Part shown: one piece after another, positions 5,997 to 23,522 of the stretch
Layout: each line of letters starts with the position of its first letter
Numbering within the stretch: position 1 is the first letter of the stretch
NCBI GenBank assembly: GCA_031422435.1
Contig: JANPLU010000020.1
Location: 15,898-79,897, forward strand
Reading direction: 5' to 3'
Origin: Acaryochloridaceae cyanobacterium VAR_48_metabat_390
GTDB taxonomy: Bacteria > Cyanobacteriota > Cyanobacteriia > Thermosynechococcales > Thermosynechococcaceae
DNA: 64,000 nt
The notes under the pieces: model-generated
Seen by the model: the letters and a program-made list of their open reading frames with translations, nothing else
Database searches by the model: none
Told to the model about the DNA's origin: nothing
Made by a program: the position numbers and the translations under genes

Positions 5997-7529
5997 TTAC
6001 TCTAAATCTTCTCTTTTTTGGGTGTTTTTAAGCGAACTGGCATTGGCATTCTTGGGCGATGTAGGTAGTGAAACGGAGAAGATGCTGCCTTCGTTTGGCG
6101 CTGATTGTACTGCTACGGTTCCACCCATCCCCTCGATAAAGGTTTTAACCAGGGCTAAACCGAGTCCGGTGCCCCCGCTGCGATGACGGGATTCATCTAC
6201 GCGGTAAAATCGCTCAAAAATGCGGGATTGATGTTTAAGTGCGATGCCAGAGCCGCGATCGCATACATGAATCAGGGCGTAGGGCCGCTGCTGCTCGAGC
6301 CGAATGGTAATGGGGGACTTGGCGCTGGCATACTTGATGGCATTCTCAACCAAATTGATCAGAACCTGCTTAAGGCGATGCGGATCAGCATAGACCGGAA
6401 CCAGTTCTGATGCCTCTAGCGTCACCGTATGATGATTAACCTGCTCCACCAGCTTAATGACGTCTGCCACGATGTCGTTGAGTACAAATAGTTCAGGTTG
6501 ATAGGTCATATAGCCATCATCAGCGCGAGCGAGGTCGAGTAAATCTTTTAAGATCCGAATGGTGTGGTCGGTTTCAGAAGAAGCAATGCTGAGCGCTTCT
6601 TGCTGAGTATCAGTTAGGTTTTGTCCCCGTCGTCGCAGGCTATCTAAATAACCCCGCACGATGGTGAGGGGGGTACGCAACTCATGGGAAACGTTGCTCA
6701 CAAACTGCCTTTGCTGCTCAGCGACGGTACGCTGCTGTTGCCAAGCCTCAGAGAGCCGATGCAGCAGCATATTAAAGGTGTTGACCAGCTCCTGCACTTC
6801 TTGAGGGGCGCGAGGTACCGTAATGGGCTGTTCGCCCAAATCTTCTACCGAAATAGCCTGGGTCATTTGGCTGACTTGCCGCAGGGGTAGCAGCAGCCGT
6901 CTGGCTTCATAGGCAATGAGCAGAATGAGTAAAATGAGTGCGGTTAGGTTGCCCCCAATGAGGCTACGAGTGAGCTGATCAAATTTAGTCTGGTCTTCAG
7001 TGAGATCGTGGATTAAATACAGCGTCCCGATGGGCATCTGGCGCACCATCAGCGGACTGGAGCAGGTAATAAAGTCATACCCCTGCACTTGGTAGCTTTG
7101 AGGAATGCTGCTGATTGACAGCTGACTTACTAATTGTTGAAACAGCAGTGCATCAAGCTGGGGTTTTTGAATATCTAGGGGTTCTTTAACCACCAGCTTT
7201 TCGTCTCGGCGCTTCACGCCAATCCAGAGGTTATTGGCCGCACGGTTTTTGAGGGCTTTTTGAATGCTTTCCTCTAGAGGAAACATCTCTCGATACAGGA
7301 CAACATCTTCTTCGATCCGTTTTGCAGTTTCTTGGAGCGCCTGCTTATGGCTGGCGGTCAGAATATCTTGAGTTTTCCAGCAGGTCCAAAGGGTGACGGT
7401 GCTAAGCCCAACGGTAATGATGGCGGCAATGCGAAGGGTAAGGGTAAGCTGAAGCGATTGCGGTTGCGCCAAATTCTTCACCAGTCTGCGAGAGATGGCT
7501 TGGATTTGGACTGAGGAAGACAACCGCAT
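5997..7529 (-). CDS. manS: Membrane sensor histidine kinase (2 TM, HAMP, HisKA, HATPase), probably the Mn sensor ManS/Hik27
   Basis: FVSNVSHELRTPL H-box, NLVENAIKY, GTGLGL. Periplasmic segment (WTCWKTQDILTASHK...DVVLYREM) recalls cyanobacterial ManS. The kinase call is firm; the gene name is less certain. Confidence 0.65.
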   Translation of the reverse strand: MRLSSSVQIQAISRRLVKNLAQPQSLQLTLTLRIAAIITVGLSTVTLWTCWKTQDILTASHKQALQETAKRIEEDVVLYREMFPLEESIQKALKNRAANNLWIGVKRRDEKLVVKEPLDIQKPQLDALLFQQLVSQLSISSIPQSYQVQGYDFITCSSPLMVRQMPIGTLYLIHDLTEDQTKFDQLTRSLIGGNLTALILLILLIAYEARRLLLPLRQVSQMTQAISVEDLGEQPITVPRAPQEVQELVNTFNMLLHRLSEAWQQQRTVAEQQRQFVSNVSHELRTPLTIVRGYLDSLRRRGQNLTDTQQEALSIASSETDHTIRILKDLLDLARADDGYMTYQPELFVLNDIVADVIKLVEQVNHHTVTLEASELVPVYADPHRLKQVLINLVENAIKYASAKSPITIRLEQQRPYALIHVCDRGSGIALKHQSRIFERFYRVDESRHRSGGTGLGLALVKTFIEGMGGTVAVQSAPNEGSIFSVSLPTSPKNANASSLKNTQKREDLE

Positions 7530-7676
7530 GGTTTAGCTTTAGCTCAAGATGATATGACCCTTCTCTAAAGTTTTAGACGAATTTGTGGGCTTCAGGATGA
7601 TGAAGCGCTAACTGCTAGATAAGTTTTAGCTGAGAAGTTCGATCTGCTCAAGCTGTGGTGGCAGTCTCAATCAATG

Positions 7677-8843
7677 CTAGTTTTGCGGTGAGGGCTGTAG
7701 AATCTGCTGCTGAATTAGCTGATCGATCAGGGTTGTGAGGTGTGAATGCAGATTGTCGCCAGGGTACTGCGGAGATAGCTGGGCGATCGCCGCTTCCAAT
7801 CCCTCCATTTTCAAAATTACCCGCCAAAACGCCGCTGCTTTACCGGACAACCCAAAGGTTTCTCCGGTCGGTAGGTGCCCAATCAATATCTGACCATTGA
7901 GTTCTCCAAAAACAATATTTTCAGTGGGCTGTAGCCAGCCCTGCACCGTCGGCTGTACCTGCATGGGTAAAGTCGTGCCGATGGATGGACGGTTTTTGAG
8001 GCAGACCTCAGACGGTAAAATATGCCAGCTTTGCTCTAGGCTCGTCGTTGAAGGGTTCCACAGCAGATGGTCAGGTTCATTCCAGGGGAAGCAGATATAG
8101 TCTGGTAGCCCTAGCCAATACCGATGCCCTGCCAAACGCGCTTGGTTCTGAGTTTGCCAGGTTGTGTAGTTAGCCCCCATTGTTGTAGGGCCGTGGTCAT
8201 AGAGGTCTTGACCGCTCAGGCATTGGATGACGGTCGGTTCACGGATGGCGATCGCCGTTCTCAGATCCGGATGGGAATAAAGGGTTGCAAACACTAGTGC
8301 CTGCTGGGGATATTGCTGAAGCACACGGTAAAACCGAGAGCCGCTAAGGGCGCAGTCATCCACAATGACGACAGGCGTATCACTGGGTTCAGACACATTA
8401 AGCTGTTCAGCGCGTAGATCCAGCATGTAAGACAGCATACCTAACACAATCAGTCCACCCCTTGGCACGCCATAGAACTGAAATTCCCGTAGGGCTTTCG
8501 ACCCAAACGTGGTCTTTAATTGGTTAGCCAACTGCTCACAGGCCTTAGTTGCTTCGGCATAGGTGATATATCGCAGTCGCCCACAGGCTTGGTTTAGAAA
8601 CGGAGCCTGAAGGCTAATTTGCCCTAATACTTTGGCAGAGAACGTTCCTAAGATTGCCAAAACGGGAGTTGGCGCGGCACGAATAATCCCAAGGCACTGG
8701 GGAACTTCTTGCCAAAGAGGATGAAGGGCGATCGCTGCCGCAACATAATGCAGTGACTGCTCTAGCGTTGCTAGCCCTAGCTGCTGCCCGTAATGGAGCA
8801 GCGCGTCTTTTTCAAAGGGCAGCGTGTAGCAGCGATAGGTCAT
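7677..8843 (-). CDS. Type I phosphoribosyltransferase-like protein with C-terminal PqqD/RRE-like domain
   Basis: GVPRGG loop and VVIVDDCALSGSRF PRPP-binding-type loop. Last ~85 aa (IVFGELNGQILIGHLPTGETFGLSGKAAAFWRVI...AIAQLSPQY...LTTLIDQLIQQQIL) fit the PqqD 3-strand/3-helix pattern. Confidence 0.7.
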   Translation of the reverse strand: MTYRCYTLPFEKDALLHYGQQLGLATLEQSLHYVAAAIALHPLWQEVPQCLGIIRAAPTPVLAILGTFSAKVLGQISLQAPFLNQACGRLRYITYAEATKACEQLANQLKTTFGSKALREFQFYGVPRGGLIVLGMLSYMLDLRAEQLNVSEPSDTPVVIVDDCALSGSRFYRVLQQYPQQALVFATLYSHPDLRTAIAIREPTVIQCLSGQDLYDHGPTTMGANYTTWQTQNQARLAGHRYWLGLPDYICFPWNEPDHLLWNPSTTSLEQSWHILPSEVCLKNRPSIGTTLPMQVQPTVQGWLQPTENIVFGELNGQILIGHLPTGETFGLSGKAAAFWRVILKMEGLEAAIAQLSPQYPGDNLHSHLTTLIDQLIQQQILQPSPQN

Positions 8844-8846
8844 CGG

Positions 8847-9770
8847 TTAAGTAAGACCAACACAGCCTAGATTATGGGGTGCTAAATAAGATTCGATAAA
8901 CGTAATCAGTTGAGGGAGTTGTTCAAGAGAACGCGGTCTTTGCAGATAGGCCATAGGGATTTCTTTGGCTAAACGGCTGCACTGATGAAAGTGCTGTACC
9001 CGACAGTTTTGGTCATAGAGCATTTTAGTGGCACGTGAATGCTGAATGAGTTCTGGAAATGCCTGGGTGCGCGATAAAGGCTGAATCTGGTTAAAGTCCC
9101 CCCCTTGCAGGACAAAGAGATGCTTTAAGGGGACTGGCATTTGGGCAAACCGAGTTTCTAACCGCTGAATTTGTTTATGGCTTAGCGAATGCAGCAGCGG
9201 CATTGCGTCAGTCTGGGCACCCACTGCCATCATTGCATCGGGCAACAGCTTTACTTCAGGAAAACTCGGCACCACTTGAGGGGTGGCAGTATCTAAACAC
9301 AGCGCCATAACGTCATCGGTGATTAGCCGATAGCCCCGCTGGTGAAAAGCCGAGGCCAGAGTAGACTTGCCCCAGCCACTGCCGCCGAGAAAGGCGATAG
9401 CTCCGCACCAAGAGTCCGCTCCGCATTTAGAGTCCGCCATATCCTCACGCGCCACACAGCTTGCATGAAGCACCATCAGCCCTCGCTGCCGCAGCACAAA
9501 CGCCATTGCAGTGCCCAAAACGTAGGCTCTCATCACCGCCCGATCCGTTTCTAAAGGTGCATCTATGATCACTTCGCACCCGTCGCGAATGAGTAGCTTT
9601 ACGTTGAGCGGCAGGTCAATCAAAATTTGATTGCTGAGGTCAGGCTCTGCTGCAACCTGATGGAGTGAGTCAAACCGAACCACAATATCTGGCGGTTCAG
9701 AATCTAAGACAGGCTGCAAAAGCGGCAGTTCTGACTGTATGCGTAAACCGTAGGCAAAAGAGGTGTACAT
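8847..9770 (-). CDS. HPr kinase-like P-loop kinase (lasso-peptide kinase type)
   Basis: AYGLRIQSELPL N-terminus, LHASCV, Walker A GGSGWGKSTLA, LITDD. Confidence 0.85.
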   Translation of the reverse strand: MYTSFAYGLRIQSELPLLQPVLDSEPPDIVVRFDSLHQVAAEPDLSNQILIDLPLNVKLLIRDGCEVIIDAPLETDRAVMRAYVLGTAMAFVLRQRGLMVLHASCVAREDMADSKCGADSWCGAIAFLGGSGWGKSTLASAFHQRGYRLITDDVMALCLDTATPQVVPSFPEVKLLPDAMMAVGAQTDAMPLLHSLSHKQIQRLETRFAQMPVPLKHLFVLQGGDFNQIQPLSRTQAFPELIQHSRATKMLYDQNCRVQHFHQCSRLAKEIPMAYLQRPRSLEQLPQLITFIESYLAPHNLGCVGLT

Positions 9771-10345
9771 CCCGACTCAAAAAAGACCAAACTGCTCCAG
9801 ACAGTAAATAGGAACTTACCCAAAAGTCAACCACTTTAGGTCTTATTTTTCTAAGAAGGTCAGTTTAGCGACAAAGTAGAAATGCTAAGCTTGGCTTTCG
9901 TCTAGGGGTAAAGTTCTTACCTTTAAGGATGCCCTGTTGTGGTCTAAGAAATATATTTTTTGGGTCAGCCAACCGTTTTGGCTAATTCTAATAGCCCACT
10001 AACGTACATCCAGACTAAAAATAAGGATGGCTTAAAGGCGAATTTTGCTCCAAATTGGCAGAAGTGGGCAGCGCAATGGGGGCGTGATTCAGTGCCGCAA
10101 TGTGCCCGTTGCGAACGTTGACTTCTCCTCGCAGCATTGTCTAAGCGCCAGCGATCGATTGGTATTGGTTAGCCCAAGGCATGGAATTAGCGCACTGCTG
10201 TGTTTTTCAACTAAAAATTGACTGCCGTTGTTGAGCGCCGAATGCGGATACTGCGCAGGCCACTGTCCATTGAAAACAGGAGAGTATCAAAAATGCCCTG
10301 CGCCGATGTCTTCATACTGATGAACAGAACAAACTCTCTCGTCAG

Positions 10346-10659
10346 GCCATAATAGAGTTAATAGAGACAATGGGGTTTATCAGTTTCCGTTGCTAAGCAG
10401 AGAGGCAATTGAGCAAATGTTAGGACTCAGTGAATTAAAACAGACGCGGGTTTATCAAGATGCTTTGCAAGAAGGTATTGAACGAGGGCGATCGCTAATT
10501 TTAAAGCTATTGACCTGTCGTGTCGGGGGTCTGCCTGCTCAATCTGAAGCTAAGATTATGAAGCTTTCCATCACTCAGCTTGAAGCGTTGGGAGAGGCAC
10601 TCCTCAACTTTTCGAGTGCTGCTGATTTACAAAATTGGCTGACTCGAGTATCTCCTTAG
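10346..10659 (+). pseudogene. C-terminal remnant of an Rpn/DUF2887-DUF4351 gene; small module possibly expressed from ATG 10417
   Basis: AIIELIET, then a frameshift to VYQFPLLSREAIEQMLGLSELKQTRVYQDA...LEALGEALLNFSSAADLQNWL (DUF4351). No N-terminal PD-(D/E)xK domain upstream. Confidence 0.7.
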
Positions 10660-21612: not shown

Positions 21613-22854
21613 TCACGCGGCACCGCCGCCATCATCGGCTTTATCCAAAACGCTCAGCACCGCCTTCGGTAAAAGCTTATCCTTGAACCAGACCAATGGA
21701 GCAGGCGTATCTCTAAAATCAACCCCCGCCTTTTCAAGGTTTAGTCGCTCCGAGATCGCAAGAATCAAATCGCTACGCCCAGCCTGACGCACCTGAGAAA
21801 ACTTTTTCTTAAGGTACTCCGGTCGCCAATAGCCCACAATCTCTAACAGCGCCGTTCGCCCATCAGGATGTACCAAACGAAAATCTGGAATCACTACGCT
21901 TCCAGGAATTGGAATTAAATCCACTTCTCGCTCTAGCTGCCATTCCGTCTTCGTCTTTGCCCATCGCTCAGCAAAGCCTGCCTCAATGAGGCTATCAAAC
22001 GCTTTGCCTGGTGGGTAGTGGCTCACCAATCCGCAATCGGTATCTAGAGTAAAGCGACGCAGATTAGTGGTGCCCGTATAGGAATCTTCTACTTTTAGGG
22101 TTGCGGTCAAACTCCACTTGGTGACGTGCAGCAGCGCAGGTAAAAGTTTCGCCAAGGCAAGGCCATAGCGGGTACTTGTCTGAAACAGGCTGGCAGGGCC
22201 ATCAATGGTGAGGGTAAACCCGTGTTCCGCATCGCCCTCAATGTAGGTCATGAGGCCAAAGAGCTTCAGATACCGAAACAGCAGCTTATATTCTCCAGGA
22301 TCGTTACGGTGGGCGTTGATTACAATATCGCTGGCACGATAAAATACGCCCTGCACTTGAGACAAGTTGTAGCGGTGCAGTAATGCTTCAGGGGTGGGTT
22401 CTTCAAACTGAGTCAGAATTTGATTTTCGTTGAGGTCAGCGTATAGCCCTTGAGTAAGCTGTATGGGCAAAATCTCTTGCCCTAATTCTTGGGTGAGCTG
22501 TTGCGCTAAGGTTTGTAGCGTTTGGGCTGCGCGCAATGGTGTAGGGGCTTGCTGAGCTGAGAGGCTAAACGCCCTCTGACGCAGTAGCTGCGGATCTAAA
22601 GGGCTGCGGGTTTCAAAGGTGCTGTAGTTTTGAGCTAATAGGTGGGCTAAACCACGCTTCGTTCGGTAGTCGGTATCTTCGCCCTCTAGCTCCAGTAGCT
22701 GACGGTTTACTTCGCCCCGTGTAGTGCCCTGGGCATCGCGGAAGAGCGTGATGAGTTCTGTGGCAATAACGCCATACCCTTGCTCTAATGGCAGTCGTTT
22801 GGGAATCAGCGTTTCGCCGCTATGGCGATGCATGAGAAGATCGCTTGGCAGCAT
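21613..22854 (-). CDS. DUF790 family (Bax1-like) predicted nuclease
   Basis: MLPSDLL start (ATG 22854), LYADL, RYNLSQVQG, DGPASLF..TRYG, FDSLIE, PDF...EIVGYW. Confidence 0.85.
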   Translation of the reverse strand: MLPSDLLMHRHSGETLIPKRLPLEQGYGVIATELITLFRDAQGTTRGEVNRQLLELEGEDTDYRTKRGLAHLLAQNYSTFETRSPLDPQLLRQRAFSLSAQQAPTPLRAAQTLQTLAQQLTQELGQEILPIQLTQGLYADLNENQILTQFEEPTPEALLHRYNLSQVQGVFYRASDIVINAHRNDPGEYKLLFRYLKLFGLMTYIEGDAEHGFTLTIDGPASLFQTSTRYGLALAKLLPALLHVTKWSLTATLKVEDSYTGTTNLRRFTLDTDCGLVSHYPPGKAFDSLIEAGFAERWAKTKTEWQLEREVDLIPIPGSVVIPDFRLVHPDGRTALLEIVGYWRPEYLKKKFSQVRQAGRSDLILAISERLNLEKAGVDFRDTPAPLVWFKDKLLPKAVLSVLDKADDGGGAA

Positions 22855-22856
22855 GA

Positions 22857-23522
22857 TTAAGCGTTTACCTGCTGCCGCACCCATTGCCGGAAGTCGATTT
22901 CTGCGGCAACTTCATCCAATAACGCCGCTTCAAGAAATTGGTATAGATCTGTTTTTTCAATGAGAGGAAAGGTGGGAGGGCGATCGCACTCTACATACGT
23001 CCCGTCTACTAACTGCAAAATCTTCCACACGCGACCGTTAAAGCGCCAAAACTCCTGCACGCCCATGCTGGCGTAGAGCGTGTTTTTATTGAGATCTGTG
23101 TTGGTAATGTCTACTTCTACAACCAAATCAGGTGCTGGATCGACGTTTAGGTTCACTTCGTGACTGGCAACCAAAGCGTAGTTTTGGATGTAGTACCCAT
23201 TGTCTGGCTCAGCACTTTTGAGTAAATCTTCACGGTCTAACGTGGTCGATCCCATCGTCTTGACCTTCATACCTAGTTCCATAACAAGAATCAAGATAAA
23301 TCGCTCAATCAGTCTTGCTGAGCGTTCGTGTCCTTCTAGGGGCATGGTAATTTCCAGCACTCCGTTGTCATAGGTGAAGCGGGCGCGGGTGCGCTCCGTT
23401 AGCAAACTTTGAATTTGTTTAAAGGCGTGCCAATCTAGATTGCGAAAGGTTAGACGCTTCTCACCGACAAGCTTGGGAGGGGACTCTATCAACATCTCAA
23501 TCACCGCAATGACAGGAAGCAT
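22857..23522 (-). CDS. Uma2-family endonuclease
   Basis: YDNGVLEITMP..HE, EPDNGYY, PDLVVEVDIT, YASMGVQEFWRF. Confidence 0.9.
   Translation of the reverse strand: MLPVIAVIEMLIESPPKLVGEKRLTFRNLDWHAFKQIQSLLTERTRARFTYDNGVLEITMPLEGHERSARLIERFILILVMELGMKVKTMGSTTLDREDLLKSAEPDNGYYIQNYALVASHEVNLNVDPAPDLVVEVDITNTDLNKNTLYASMGVQEFWRFNGRVWKILQLVDGTYVECDRPPTFPLIEKTDLYQFLEAALLDEVAAEIDFRQWVRQQVNA

Follow-up and report, generated by a model that had tools for sequence, protein, structure and literature searches.

The window analyzed here, a stretch of 64,000 nucleotides, lies on contig C20 of the 3.7-Mb genome of Acaryochloridaceae cyanobacterium VAR_48_metabat_390 (99.99% complete). It carries a pair of genes encoding an HPr-like kinase and a phosphoribosyltransferase (PRTase) that is fused to a recognition element (RRE) for peptides that are synthesized ribosomally and modified after translation (RiPPs). 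Both open reading frames (ORFs) are real and lie on the minus strand with 3 nt between them, as the initial annotation had stated. The evidence below is consistent with a pair that would serve the genome's lasso-type RiPP machinery as a tailoring module detached from it. The features of the pair are as follows.

8847..9770, minus strand: HPr-kinase-like peptide kinase, 307 aa (sequence motifs, identity to a lasso-cluster kinase, quick tree)
7677..8843, minus strand: PRTase-RRE fusion, 388 aa (predicted fold, family profile)
8577..8843, minus strand: N-terminal alpha/beta domain, residues 1-89, weakly conserved (model)
7974..8576, minus strand: type I PRTase core, approximately residues 90-290, with a Trp-rich C-terminal segment (structure match, conservation)
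8454..8471, minus strand: pyrophosphate-binding loop GVPRGG, residues 125-130 (alignment with the equivalent loop in PDB entries 1wd5 and 2yzk)
8334..8372, minus strand: loop binding phosphoribosyl pyrophosphate (PRPP), VVIVDDCALSGSR, residues 158-170 (family conservation)
7689..7940, minus strand: RRE of the lasso B1 type, residues 302-385 (model match, family profile)

Domain structure of the pair

Library matches of the kinase and the PRTase-RRE protein all fall below cut-off, and the domain assignments therefore rest on structure and family profiles. The three motifs reported earlier for the kinase can all be located in its sequence (LHAS, residues 101-104; Walker A GGSGWGKST, 129-137; DD, 152-153); together with a RiPP context, the His, Walker A Lys and acidic pair are the hallmarks of HPr-like RiPP kinases. 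Its best NCBIfam match is HprK_rel_A (E 3.7e-7, far below cut-off). The protein is 34% identical to the kinase of a lasso peptide cluster on contig C84 of the same genome, and in a quick tree it nests among cyanobacterial lasso-cluster kinases.

An AlphaFold2 model of the 388-aa protein, built from 50 sequences, has a pLDDT of 94.2 and a pTM of 0.89. The N-terminal domain, folded alone (pLDDT 89.3), gave no clear structural match, the best (Z 6.5) being to a common arrangement. The core has the alpha/beta fold of type I PRTases, aligning to HGXPRT (PDB entry 4z1o) with a Z score of 11.8 and a root-mean-square deviation (rmsd) of 4.2 over 144 residues, and matching XGPRT in Foldseek (E 4.6e-6). 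An ESM Atlas search with residues 1-295 returned only matches under 0.9, which serve as leads only.

The PRTase domains of 65 sequences from 77 usable relatives (36-89% identity) were aligned; PF00156 is matched by 28 of these at E up to 0.05. Both PRTase loops noted at the outset, GVPRGG and VVIVDDCALSG (residues 158-168), are present, and their key residues are preserved throughout the family. In the pyrophosphate loop, Pro127, Gly129 and Gly130 are found in 65/65 sequences and the Arg in 64/65; the PRPP loop follows the type I pattern of four hydrophobic residues, an acidic pair and S/T-G, with Asp162, Asp163, Ser/Thr167 and Gly168 in 65/65. Leu188, Gly245, Phe252, Trp254, Glu256 and Trp273 are also invariant (65/65), and Asp213 and Asp216 occur in about 90% of the aligned relatives.

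The protein thus shares the core fold, the pyrophosphate loop and the acidic-pair PRPP loop with XGPRT, HGXPRT, UPRT and OPRT, from which it differs in lacking loop 2, in conserving Cys164 and Arg170, in carrying an additional N-terminal domain and a fused RRE, and in the replacement of the hood by the Trp-rich segment. A further difference is at position 166, which is Leu here and Leu, Ile, Phe or Tyr in all 65 relatives. In 6-oxopurine PRTases (HPRT/XGPRT) this position, four residues past the first acidic residue, is the catalytic Asp (reference motif from the available part of PMC10357585).

Residues 302-385 form three strands and three helices, as in solved RREs. The PqqD-like domain proposed from the sequence models as a lasso B1-type RRE, with close matches to TfuB1 (6jx3: Z 12.3, rmsd 1.9, 83 aligned) and TbiB1 (5v1u: Z 11.9). 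The family profile matches TbiB1 with an E value of 5.8e-11; the PqqD match of the single sequence (E 0.0035) is below cut-off.

Lasso peptide genes around homologs and in the source genome

Clustered at 90%, the family counts 525 proteins; a threshold of 50% identity gives 503 clusters (390 at E 1e-30), and most of the 150 listed are 370-430 aa long. Its tree labels include more than ten bacterial phyla and methanogens. Among 401 genomes of the phylum, the PRTase was found in two, including the source genome. The nearest homologs of the pair belong to Thermosynechococcaceae and Altericista, and the window PRTase falls within a 7-row clade of satellite pairs (support 100).

Gene context was surveyed in the best 80 of 123 genome matches, 40 of which have at least 5 kb on both sides (long loci), using hidden Markov models (HMMs) built from clusters with representatives checked in Pfam. 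The 40 long loci contain a cyclase in 36, a kinase in 35, a precursor in 34, a separate RRE in 23, a B2 peptidase in 22 and a PF14907 nucleotidyltransferase in 18, and this co-occurrence upholds the RiPP link drawn initially. Across all 80 loci the corresponding counts are 58, 63, 54, 28, 28 and 22. In 37 of the 80 the gene directly upstream of the PRTase gene encodes a precursor, and in 47 a kinase lies within about 400 nt. The frequent presence of a separate RRE makes it unlikely that the fused one is just the cluster's B1 protein.

Several variants of the cluster were seen. Four Acidobacteriota loci (L030, L038, L040 and L042) have cyclase, precursor and PRTase-RRE genes with no kinase or B2 nearby, and in at least L030 and L042 a DegT-type aminotransferase gene comes next. 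The PRTase-kinase pair is followed by a PRMT-like methyltransferase gene in L037, L081 and L082, and tandem cyclase-like genes, two per cluster, occur in L035, L039, L047, L054, L066 and L074.

In the wider family the substrate would be a true lasso precursor. Of the 40 precursors encoded directly upstream of PRTase genes, 39 have Asp or Glu at core positions 7-9, and all have Ser or Thr past position 9. His (12 of 40), Trp (6) and Tyr (13) are sporadic and were rejected as conserved acceptors, so that no conserved ring-nitrogen acceptor exists. A [GA]-S-hydrophobic motif is present in 26/40 (shuffle mean 4.8; 26 reached in 0/2000 shuffles), its Ser being at core position 14 in 16 of these 26. 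Control precursors, from cyanobacteria with no PRTase found, have the motif in 5/25 (shuffle mean 4.0). Nostocales loci have it in 10/12 precursors upstream of the PRTase gene and in 0/4 downstream. G[ST] alone was rejected as a PRTase-specific motif, being found in 19/25 controls.

Within the window, no precursor was found in the flanks by leader-motif scan and translation, and no cyclase or peptidase was seen adjoining the pair in library scans covering part of the window ORFs, in line with the earlier description. The precursor, B1, B2 and cyclase that together define a lasso cluster are all on contig C84. Scanning the whole genome for the leader motif gave seven matches, two of them convincing: the C84 precursor and a peptide on contig C134, named ASL here after its C-terminal motif. 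The description of the pair as an orphan thus holds for the window and not for the genome. Its proposed action in trans is supported, with partner genes elsewhere in the genome. The relevant genes are listed below.

C84:35072-34758: RRE, lasso cluster (passes NCBIfam cut-off)
C84:34798-34295: B2, lasso cluster (passes NCBIfam cut-off)
C84:34281-32203: cyclase, lasso cluster (passes NCBIfam cut-off)
C84:32027-31866: precursor, lasso cluster, 53 aa (passes NCBIfam cut-off)
C84:31654-30770: lasso-cluster kinase
C134:29329-29490: ASL peptide, 53-aa linear ORF, upstream of cyanoexosortase A

The C84 cluster also includes an ABC exporter, and its B2 and discrete PqqD proteins are the single matches of each kind in the genome.

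ASL is a real gene under purifying selection, with 13-17 synonymous versus 6-8 non-synonymous codon changes in three comparisons. Its leader is of the lasso type (W/Y-x-x-P-x-L and Thr at -2; the Trp, Pro, Leu and Thr are invariant in 24 copies), and 24/24 copies match lasso_cyano, the C134 query itself scoring below cut-off and in the leader only. Assuming cleavage after the residue that follows the Thr, 0/24 have Asp or Glu at core positions 7-9; closure of a lasso ring is not possible for ASL. Among the core residues, Ser49 alone is invariant across the 24 aligned copies, and it lies within A-S-[LFI] in 23.

ASL peptides form a family of 47-53-aa peptides with a lasso leader, no ring acceptor and an invariant Ser near the C-terminus, present in 24 of 48 family genomes; no earlier description of it was found. 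The primary copies adjoin cyanoexosortase A in 11 satellite-clade genomes (four by HMM, the rest by eye), and in another genus ASL adjoins its own kinase. No NCBIfam match to PEP-CTERM exosortase substrates was obtained with the 24 members at E up to 10, and all ESM Atlas matches of ASL were under 0.9 (leads only). In a search of the 401 phylum genomes, the matches in the 14 other genomes that had one were lasso-type precursors matched mainly by the leader; one of 19 matches reached weakly into the core. No SpI was seen by eye next to ASL, and no genome-wide SpI search was made.

Candidate substrates, proposed modification and alternatives

In the source genome the balance tips slightly toward ASL as the substrate; the C84 lasso precursor has an appreciable but smaller chance, a small remainder falls to neither, and both may serve. 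Among the 48 family genomes, the PRTase is present in 10 (plus one marginal profile match, E 3.7e-4), B2 in 27 and ASL in 24, and the 11 strong ASL matches are those 10 PRTase genomes and G012. The other 13 ASL genomes have no PRTase and carry a distinct kinase type, which adjoins ASL in 10, and the 11 satellite genomes have just two kinase loci each, lasso-cluster and satellite, a pattern that points to replacement of the ASL kinase by the pair. In the closed genome G019, a second, paralogous ASL copy lies approximately 140 nt behind the PRTase gene. In G012 (76% complete; L190, L198) the two kinases and the ABC gene seem to be split, and gatB follows with no PRTase, reflecting pathway decay or an assembly error.

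The predicted complex of PRTase-RRE with ASL scored 0.33, which is weak support, against 0.00 for the best control, with contacts agreeing at 54% or more and a partner pLDDT of at least 40. This mark is reached by 116/157 solved and 2/215 mismatched pairs; at the mark, scores of 0.60 or under comprise only 18 solved pairs and both mismatched pairs. Because RRE-leader complexes have already been solved, the score may reflect likeness only.

Several observations count against ASL. It is adjacent to the pair in only one of nine satellite loci, and the window kinase groups in the quick tree with lasso-cluster kinases and not with the ASL-adjacent kinase clade. The co-distribution is essentially that of one clade and therefore amounts to one event. 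The three satellite genomes checked besides the source genome (G012, G013 and G019) also have a lasso cyclase, and the Nostocales PRTase is part of clusters whose lasso precursors are of the C84 type. The C84 lasso core of the source genome is without the Ser motif, but 4/7 lasso precursors from satellite-clade genomes carry it.

The usual acceptors of type I PRTases are small bases. In the mechanism proposed for the pair, the fused RRE would very probably bind the precursor leader at W/Y/F-x-x-P-x-L, and the HPr-like kinase would, as its characterized relatives do, phosphorylate a core Ser. The PRTase core would then bind Mg-PRPP and transfer 5-phosphoribose (+212 Da) to a peptide oxygen, in the hydroxyl of the Ser or in the phosphate group of a phospho-Ser, with pyrophosphate as the leaving group, and the leader would be removed by the B1/B2 pair of C84. 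Precedents for parts of this scheme are given in the available portions of three reports: BsfK needs its RRE, BsfB1, for efficient phosphorylation (PMC10368454), Ser phosphorylation by LppK is helped by an RRE (PMC13381572), and a hexose is added to phosphorylated pseudomycoidin, on phospho-Ser, in the PsmN system (PMC6993621). It is from the PsmN-dependent hexose addition that a phosphoribose on Ser or phospho-Ser is proposed by analogy, and O-phosphoribosylation of either was found nowhere in the RiPP literature.

We regard the chances as evenly balanced that the satellite module places a phosphate on a Ser and 5-phosphoribose on either that residue or the phosphate. The fuller proposal is tentative: that the PRTase has been repurposed as a leader-guided protein modifier that O-phosphoribosylates Ser or phospho-Ser, and that in this clade it left the lasso cluster to decorate an undescribed linear peptide by cyanoexosortase A, within a decentralized network in which one B1/B2 pair serves several kinase-peptide satellites.

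Other points weigh against the proposed chemistry. The kinase is not obligatory, being absent from the four long-flank Acidobacteriota loci described above. The Ser motif was picked after viewing the data (four motifs were tried) among kin that are not independent, its control set, not above shuffle, is cyanobacterial only, and it may belong to the kinase. Judged from alignments, the flexible catalytic loop 2 is missing: Arg128 and Asp162 are 34 residues apart in 35 of the 60 scored rows, and solved PRTases carry 12-22 residues more at loop 2 (22 in 6igs and 12 in 2yzk, by profile alignment). In normal PRTases this loop shields the transition state (PMC10357585, available part). Its absence would fit a bulky substrate and, equally, an inactive domain; we infer from the alignments an active site that is open yet still PRPP-binding, suited to a bulky acceptor or to a non-catalytic role.

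The main rival, which we consider rather unlikely, takes up this last point: the PRTase domain would be non-catalytic, the protein an adaptor that lends the kinase an RRE, and the domain a sensor to which PRPP or a nucleotide binds. PyrR and PurR are sensors of this kind, and their fold is the same (1w30, Z 10.3; 1o57, Z 7.7). An adaptor would also accord with the absence of loop 2 and of the purine-type catalytic Asp, with the kinase within about 400 nt in 47/80 loci, with the existence of very similar lasso precursors in genomes where no PRTase was found, and with the RRE requirement of BsfK (PMC10368454). However, the invariant Glu256, Trp254, Phe252 and Trp273, together with Asp213 and Asp216, resemble an active site, and an adaptor does not sit easily with the retention of the gene in kinase-free clusters or with the separate RRE in 23/40 long loci.

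It is unlikely that the domain is catalytic and peptide-directed with a different chemistry, such as transfer of phosphate or pyrophosphate from PRPP, ribosylation of a carboxylate or terminal amine, or provision of an activated sugar phosphate for the PF14907 nucleotidyltransferase, in which case phosphoribose and AMP would give an ADP-ribose-like group. The nearest folds are HGXPRT/UPRT/XGPRT-type transferases, although PRPP synthetases share the fold (Z 8-10). PF14907 genes are found in 18/40 long loci and absent from 22, and the two copies in the source genome are not close to the pair, C84 or C134; in PMC13381572, LppN showed no activity when expressed in a heterologous host, and the authors of that report suspected that a partner was lacking.

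That the pair has no peptide role, being an enzyme of nucleobase salvage or of exopolysaccharide whose PqqD domain is vestigial, is very improbable given the precursor directly upstream in 37/80 loci, the lasso B1 type of the RRE and the missing 6-oxopurine catalytic Asp, even though many loci and the ASL gene lie amid glycosyltransferase, sugar-transferase and cyanoexosortase genes.

Relation to described systems and neighboring genes

The pair itself is not a lasso cluster and not a 6-oxopurine PRTase, and would work like the tailoring arm of paeninodin-type clusters; what is new here is the split layout and a non-lasso candidate substrate. Paeninodin (PadeK), pseudomycoidin (PsmK/PsmN) and the Bradymonas bsf system (BsfK/BsfB1/BsfN) likewise combine an HPr-like kinase, a lasso-type RRE with its leader motif and a Ser target, and in the case of PsmN a sugar may be put onto phospho-Ser by a further enzyme. 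The available portions of these reports mention no PRTase, whereas in the window the RRE is fused to one, and the pair is on a different contig from B1, B2, the cyclase and the precursors.

ASL looks like a cyanobacterial analog of the linear polyphosphorylated peptides (LPP; Popov et al. 2026, PMC13381572). As described in the available part of that report, LPP share with ASL a linear peptide, a lasso-like leader, an HprK-like kinase, a lasso cluster in the same genome and adjoining polysaccharide genes, and differ in their SpI/SipW-like peptidase, discrete RRE, phosphorylation at Ser3 and occurrence in Bacillota. The invariant Ser of ASL is near the C-terminus.

An RRE-Finder model, RREFam048, bears the name of this architecture, Phosphoribosyl_Transferase_RRE (Bregman et al. 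2025, PMC12710340, Table S1). Membership is set at a score above 19 bits, and the window protein presumably belongs to it, judging by the model name alone. The name occurs in that table only, and the main text of PMC12710340 contains no match for 'phosphorib'. Neither the main text nor the readable supplements of RRE-Finder 2020 gave a match; its two scanned supplements may show the fusion. No characterization of the PRTase-RRE architecture was found in full-text literature outside subscription journals. The initial statement that no characterized RiPP enzyme with this architecture is known is qualified by the existing catalog entry, for which no function was found in print.

If the proposed modification is correct, a leader-guided PRTase would extend RiPP chemistry by a new post-translational modification, represented in about 500 protein clusters from methanogenic archaea and more than ten bacterial phyla, and would offer a site-specific route to ribose-phosphate on peptides. 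It could also explain how small Gly/Ser-rich lasso tails remain threaded, as proposed for PsmN sugars in the available part of PMC6993621. The present genome makes the question concrete, since both enzymes and a pair of 53-aa candidate substrates can be named. It also shows that the genes of a lasso-type pathway in cyanobacteria can be dispersed across the genome, where neighborhood-based mining would miss them.

Possible further satellites were observed. The source genome has two PF14907 nucleotidyltransferase genes apart from the lasso cluster (C16:73978-75378 and C128:95015-96067). L176 and L178/L195 (genomes G033 and G030) encode a lasso-leader peptide with a very basic core starting with 6-7 Arg, followed by kinase, ABC transporter and nucleotidyltransferase-like genes, and form another satellite. 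An acidic lasso-leader peptide and a kinase lie in an exopolysaccharide locus in L194 (G003:C23:290000-303000), the third kinase-peptide module of G003. In G030, G025 and G011 (loci L196, L199 and L188) cyanoexosortase A adjoins lasso B1/B2 or kinase genes, and L196 and L199 also contain an HpsJ-like gene; these neighbors hint that lasso-type machinery may be connected with cell-surface polysaccharide or protein sorting.

Relatives of the pair show the gene order CHAT-kinase-PRTase-gatB, with a CHAT gene before the pair and gatB after it in most. In the window only a broken CHAT remnant is left upstream, and the locus has therefore been rearranged. A promoter and terminator scan of positions 7400-10500 gave nothing above shuffles.

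9994..10345, minus strand: CHAT-domain gene remnant, broken and internally deleted (tblastn and blastn)

Between this remnant and a ribosomal RNA methyltransferase-like gene lies a short DUF4351 ORF, probably a fragment (10390-10659, plus strand). Elsewhere in the window, positions 21613-22884 (minus strand) encode a protein that resembles the Bax1 endonuclease of archaea (E 1e-44, well short of the cut-off).

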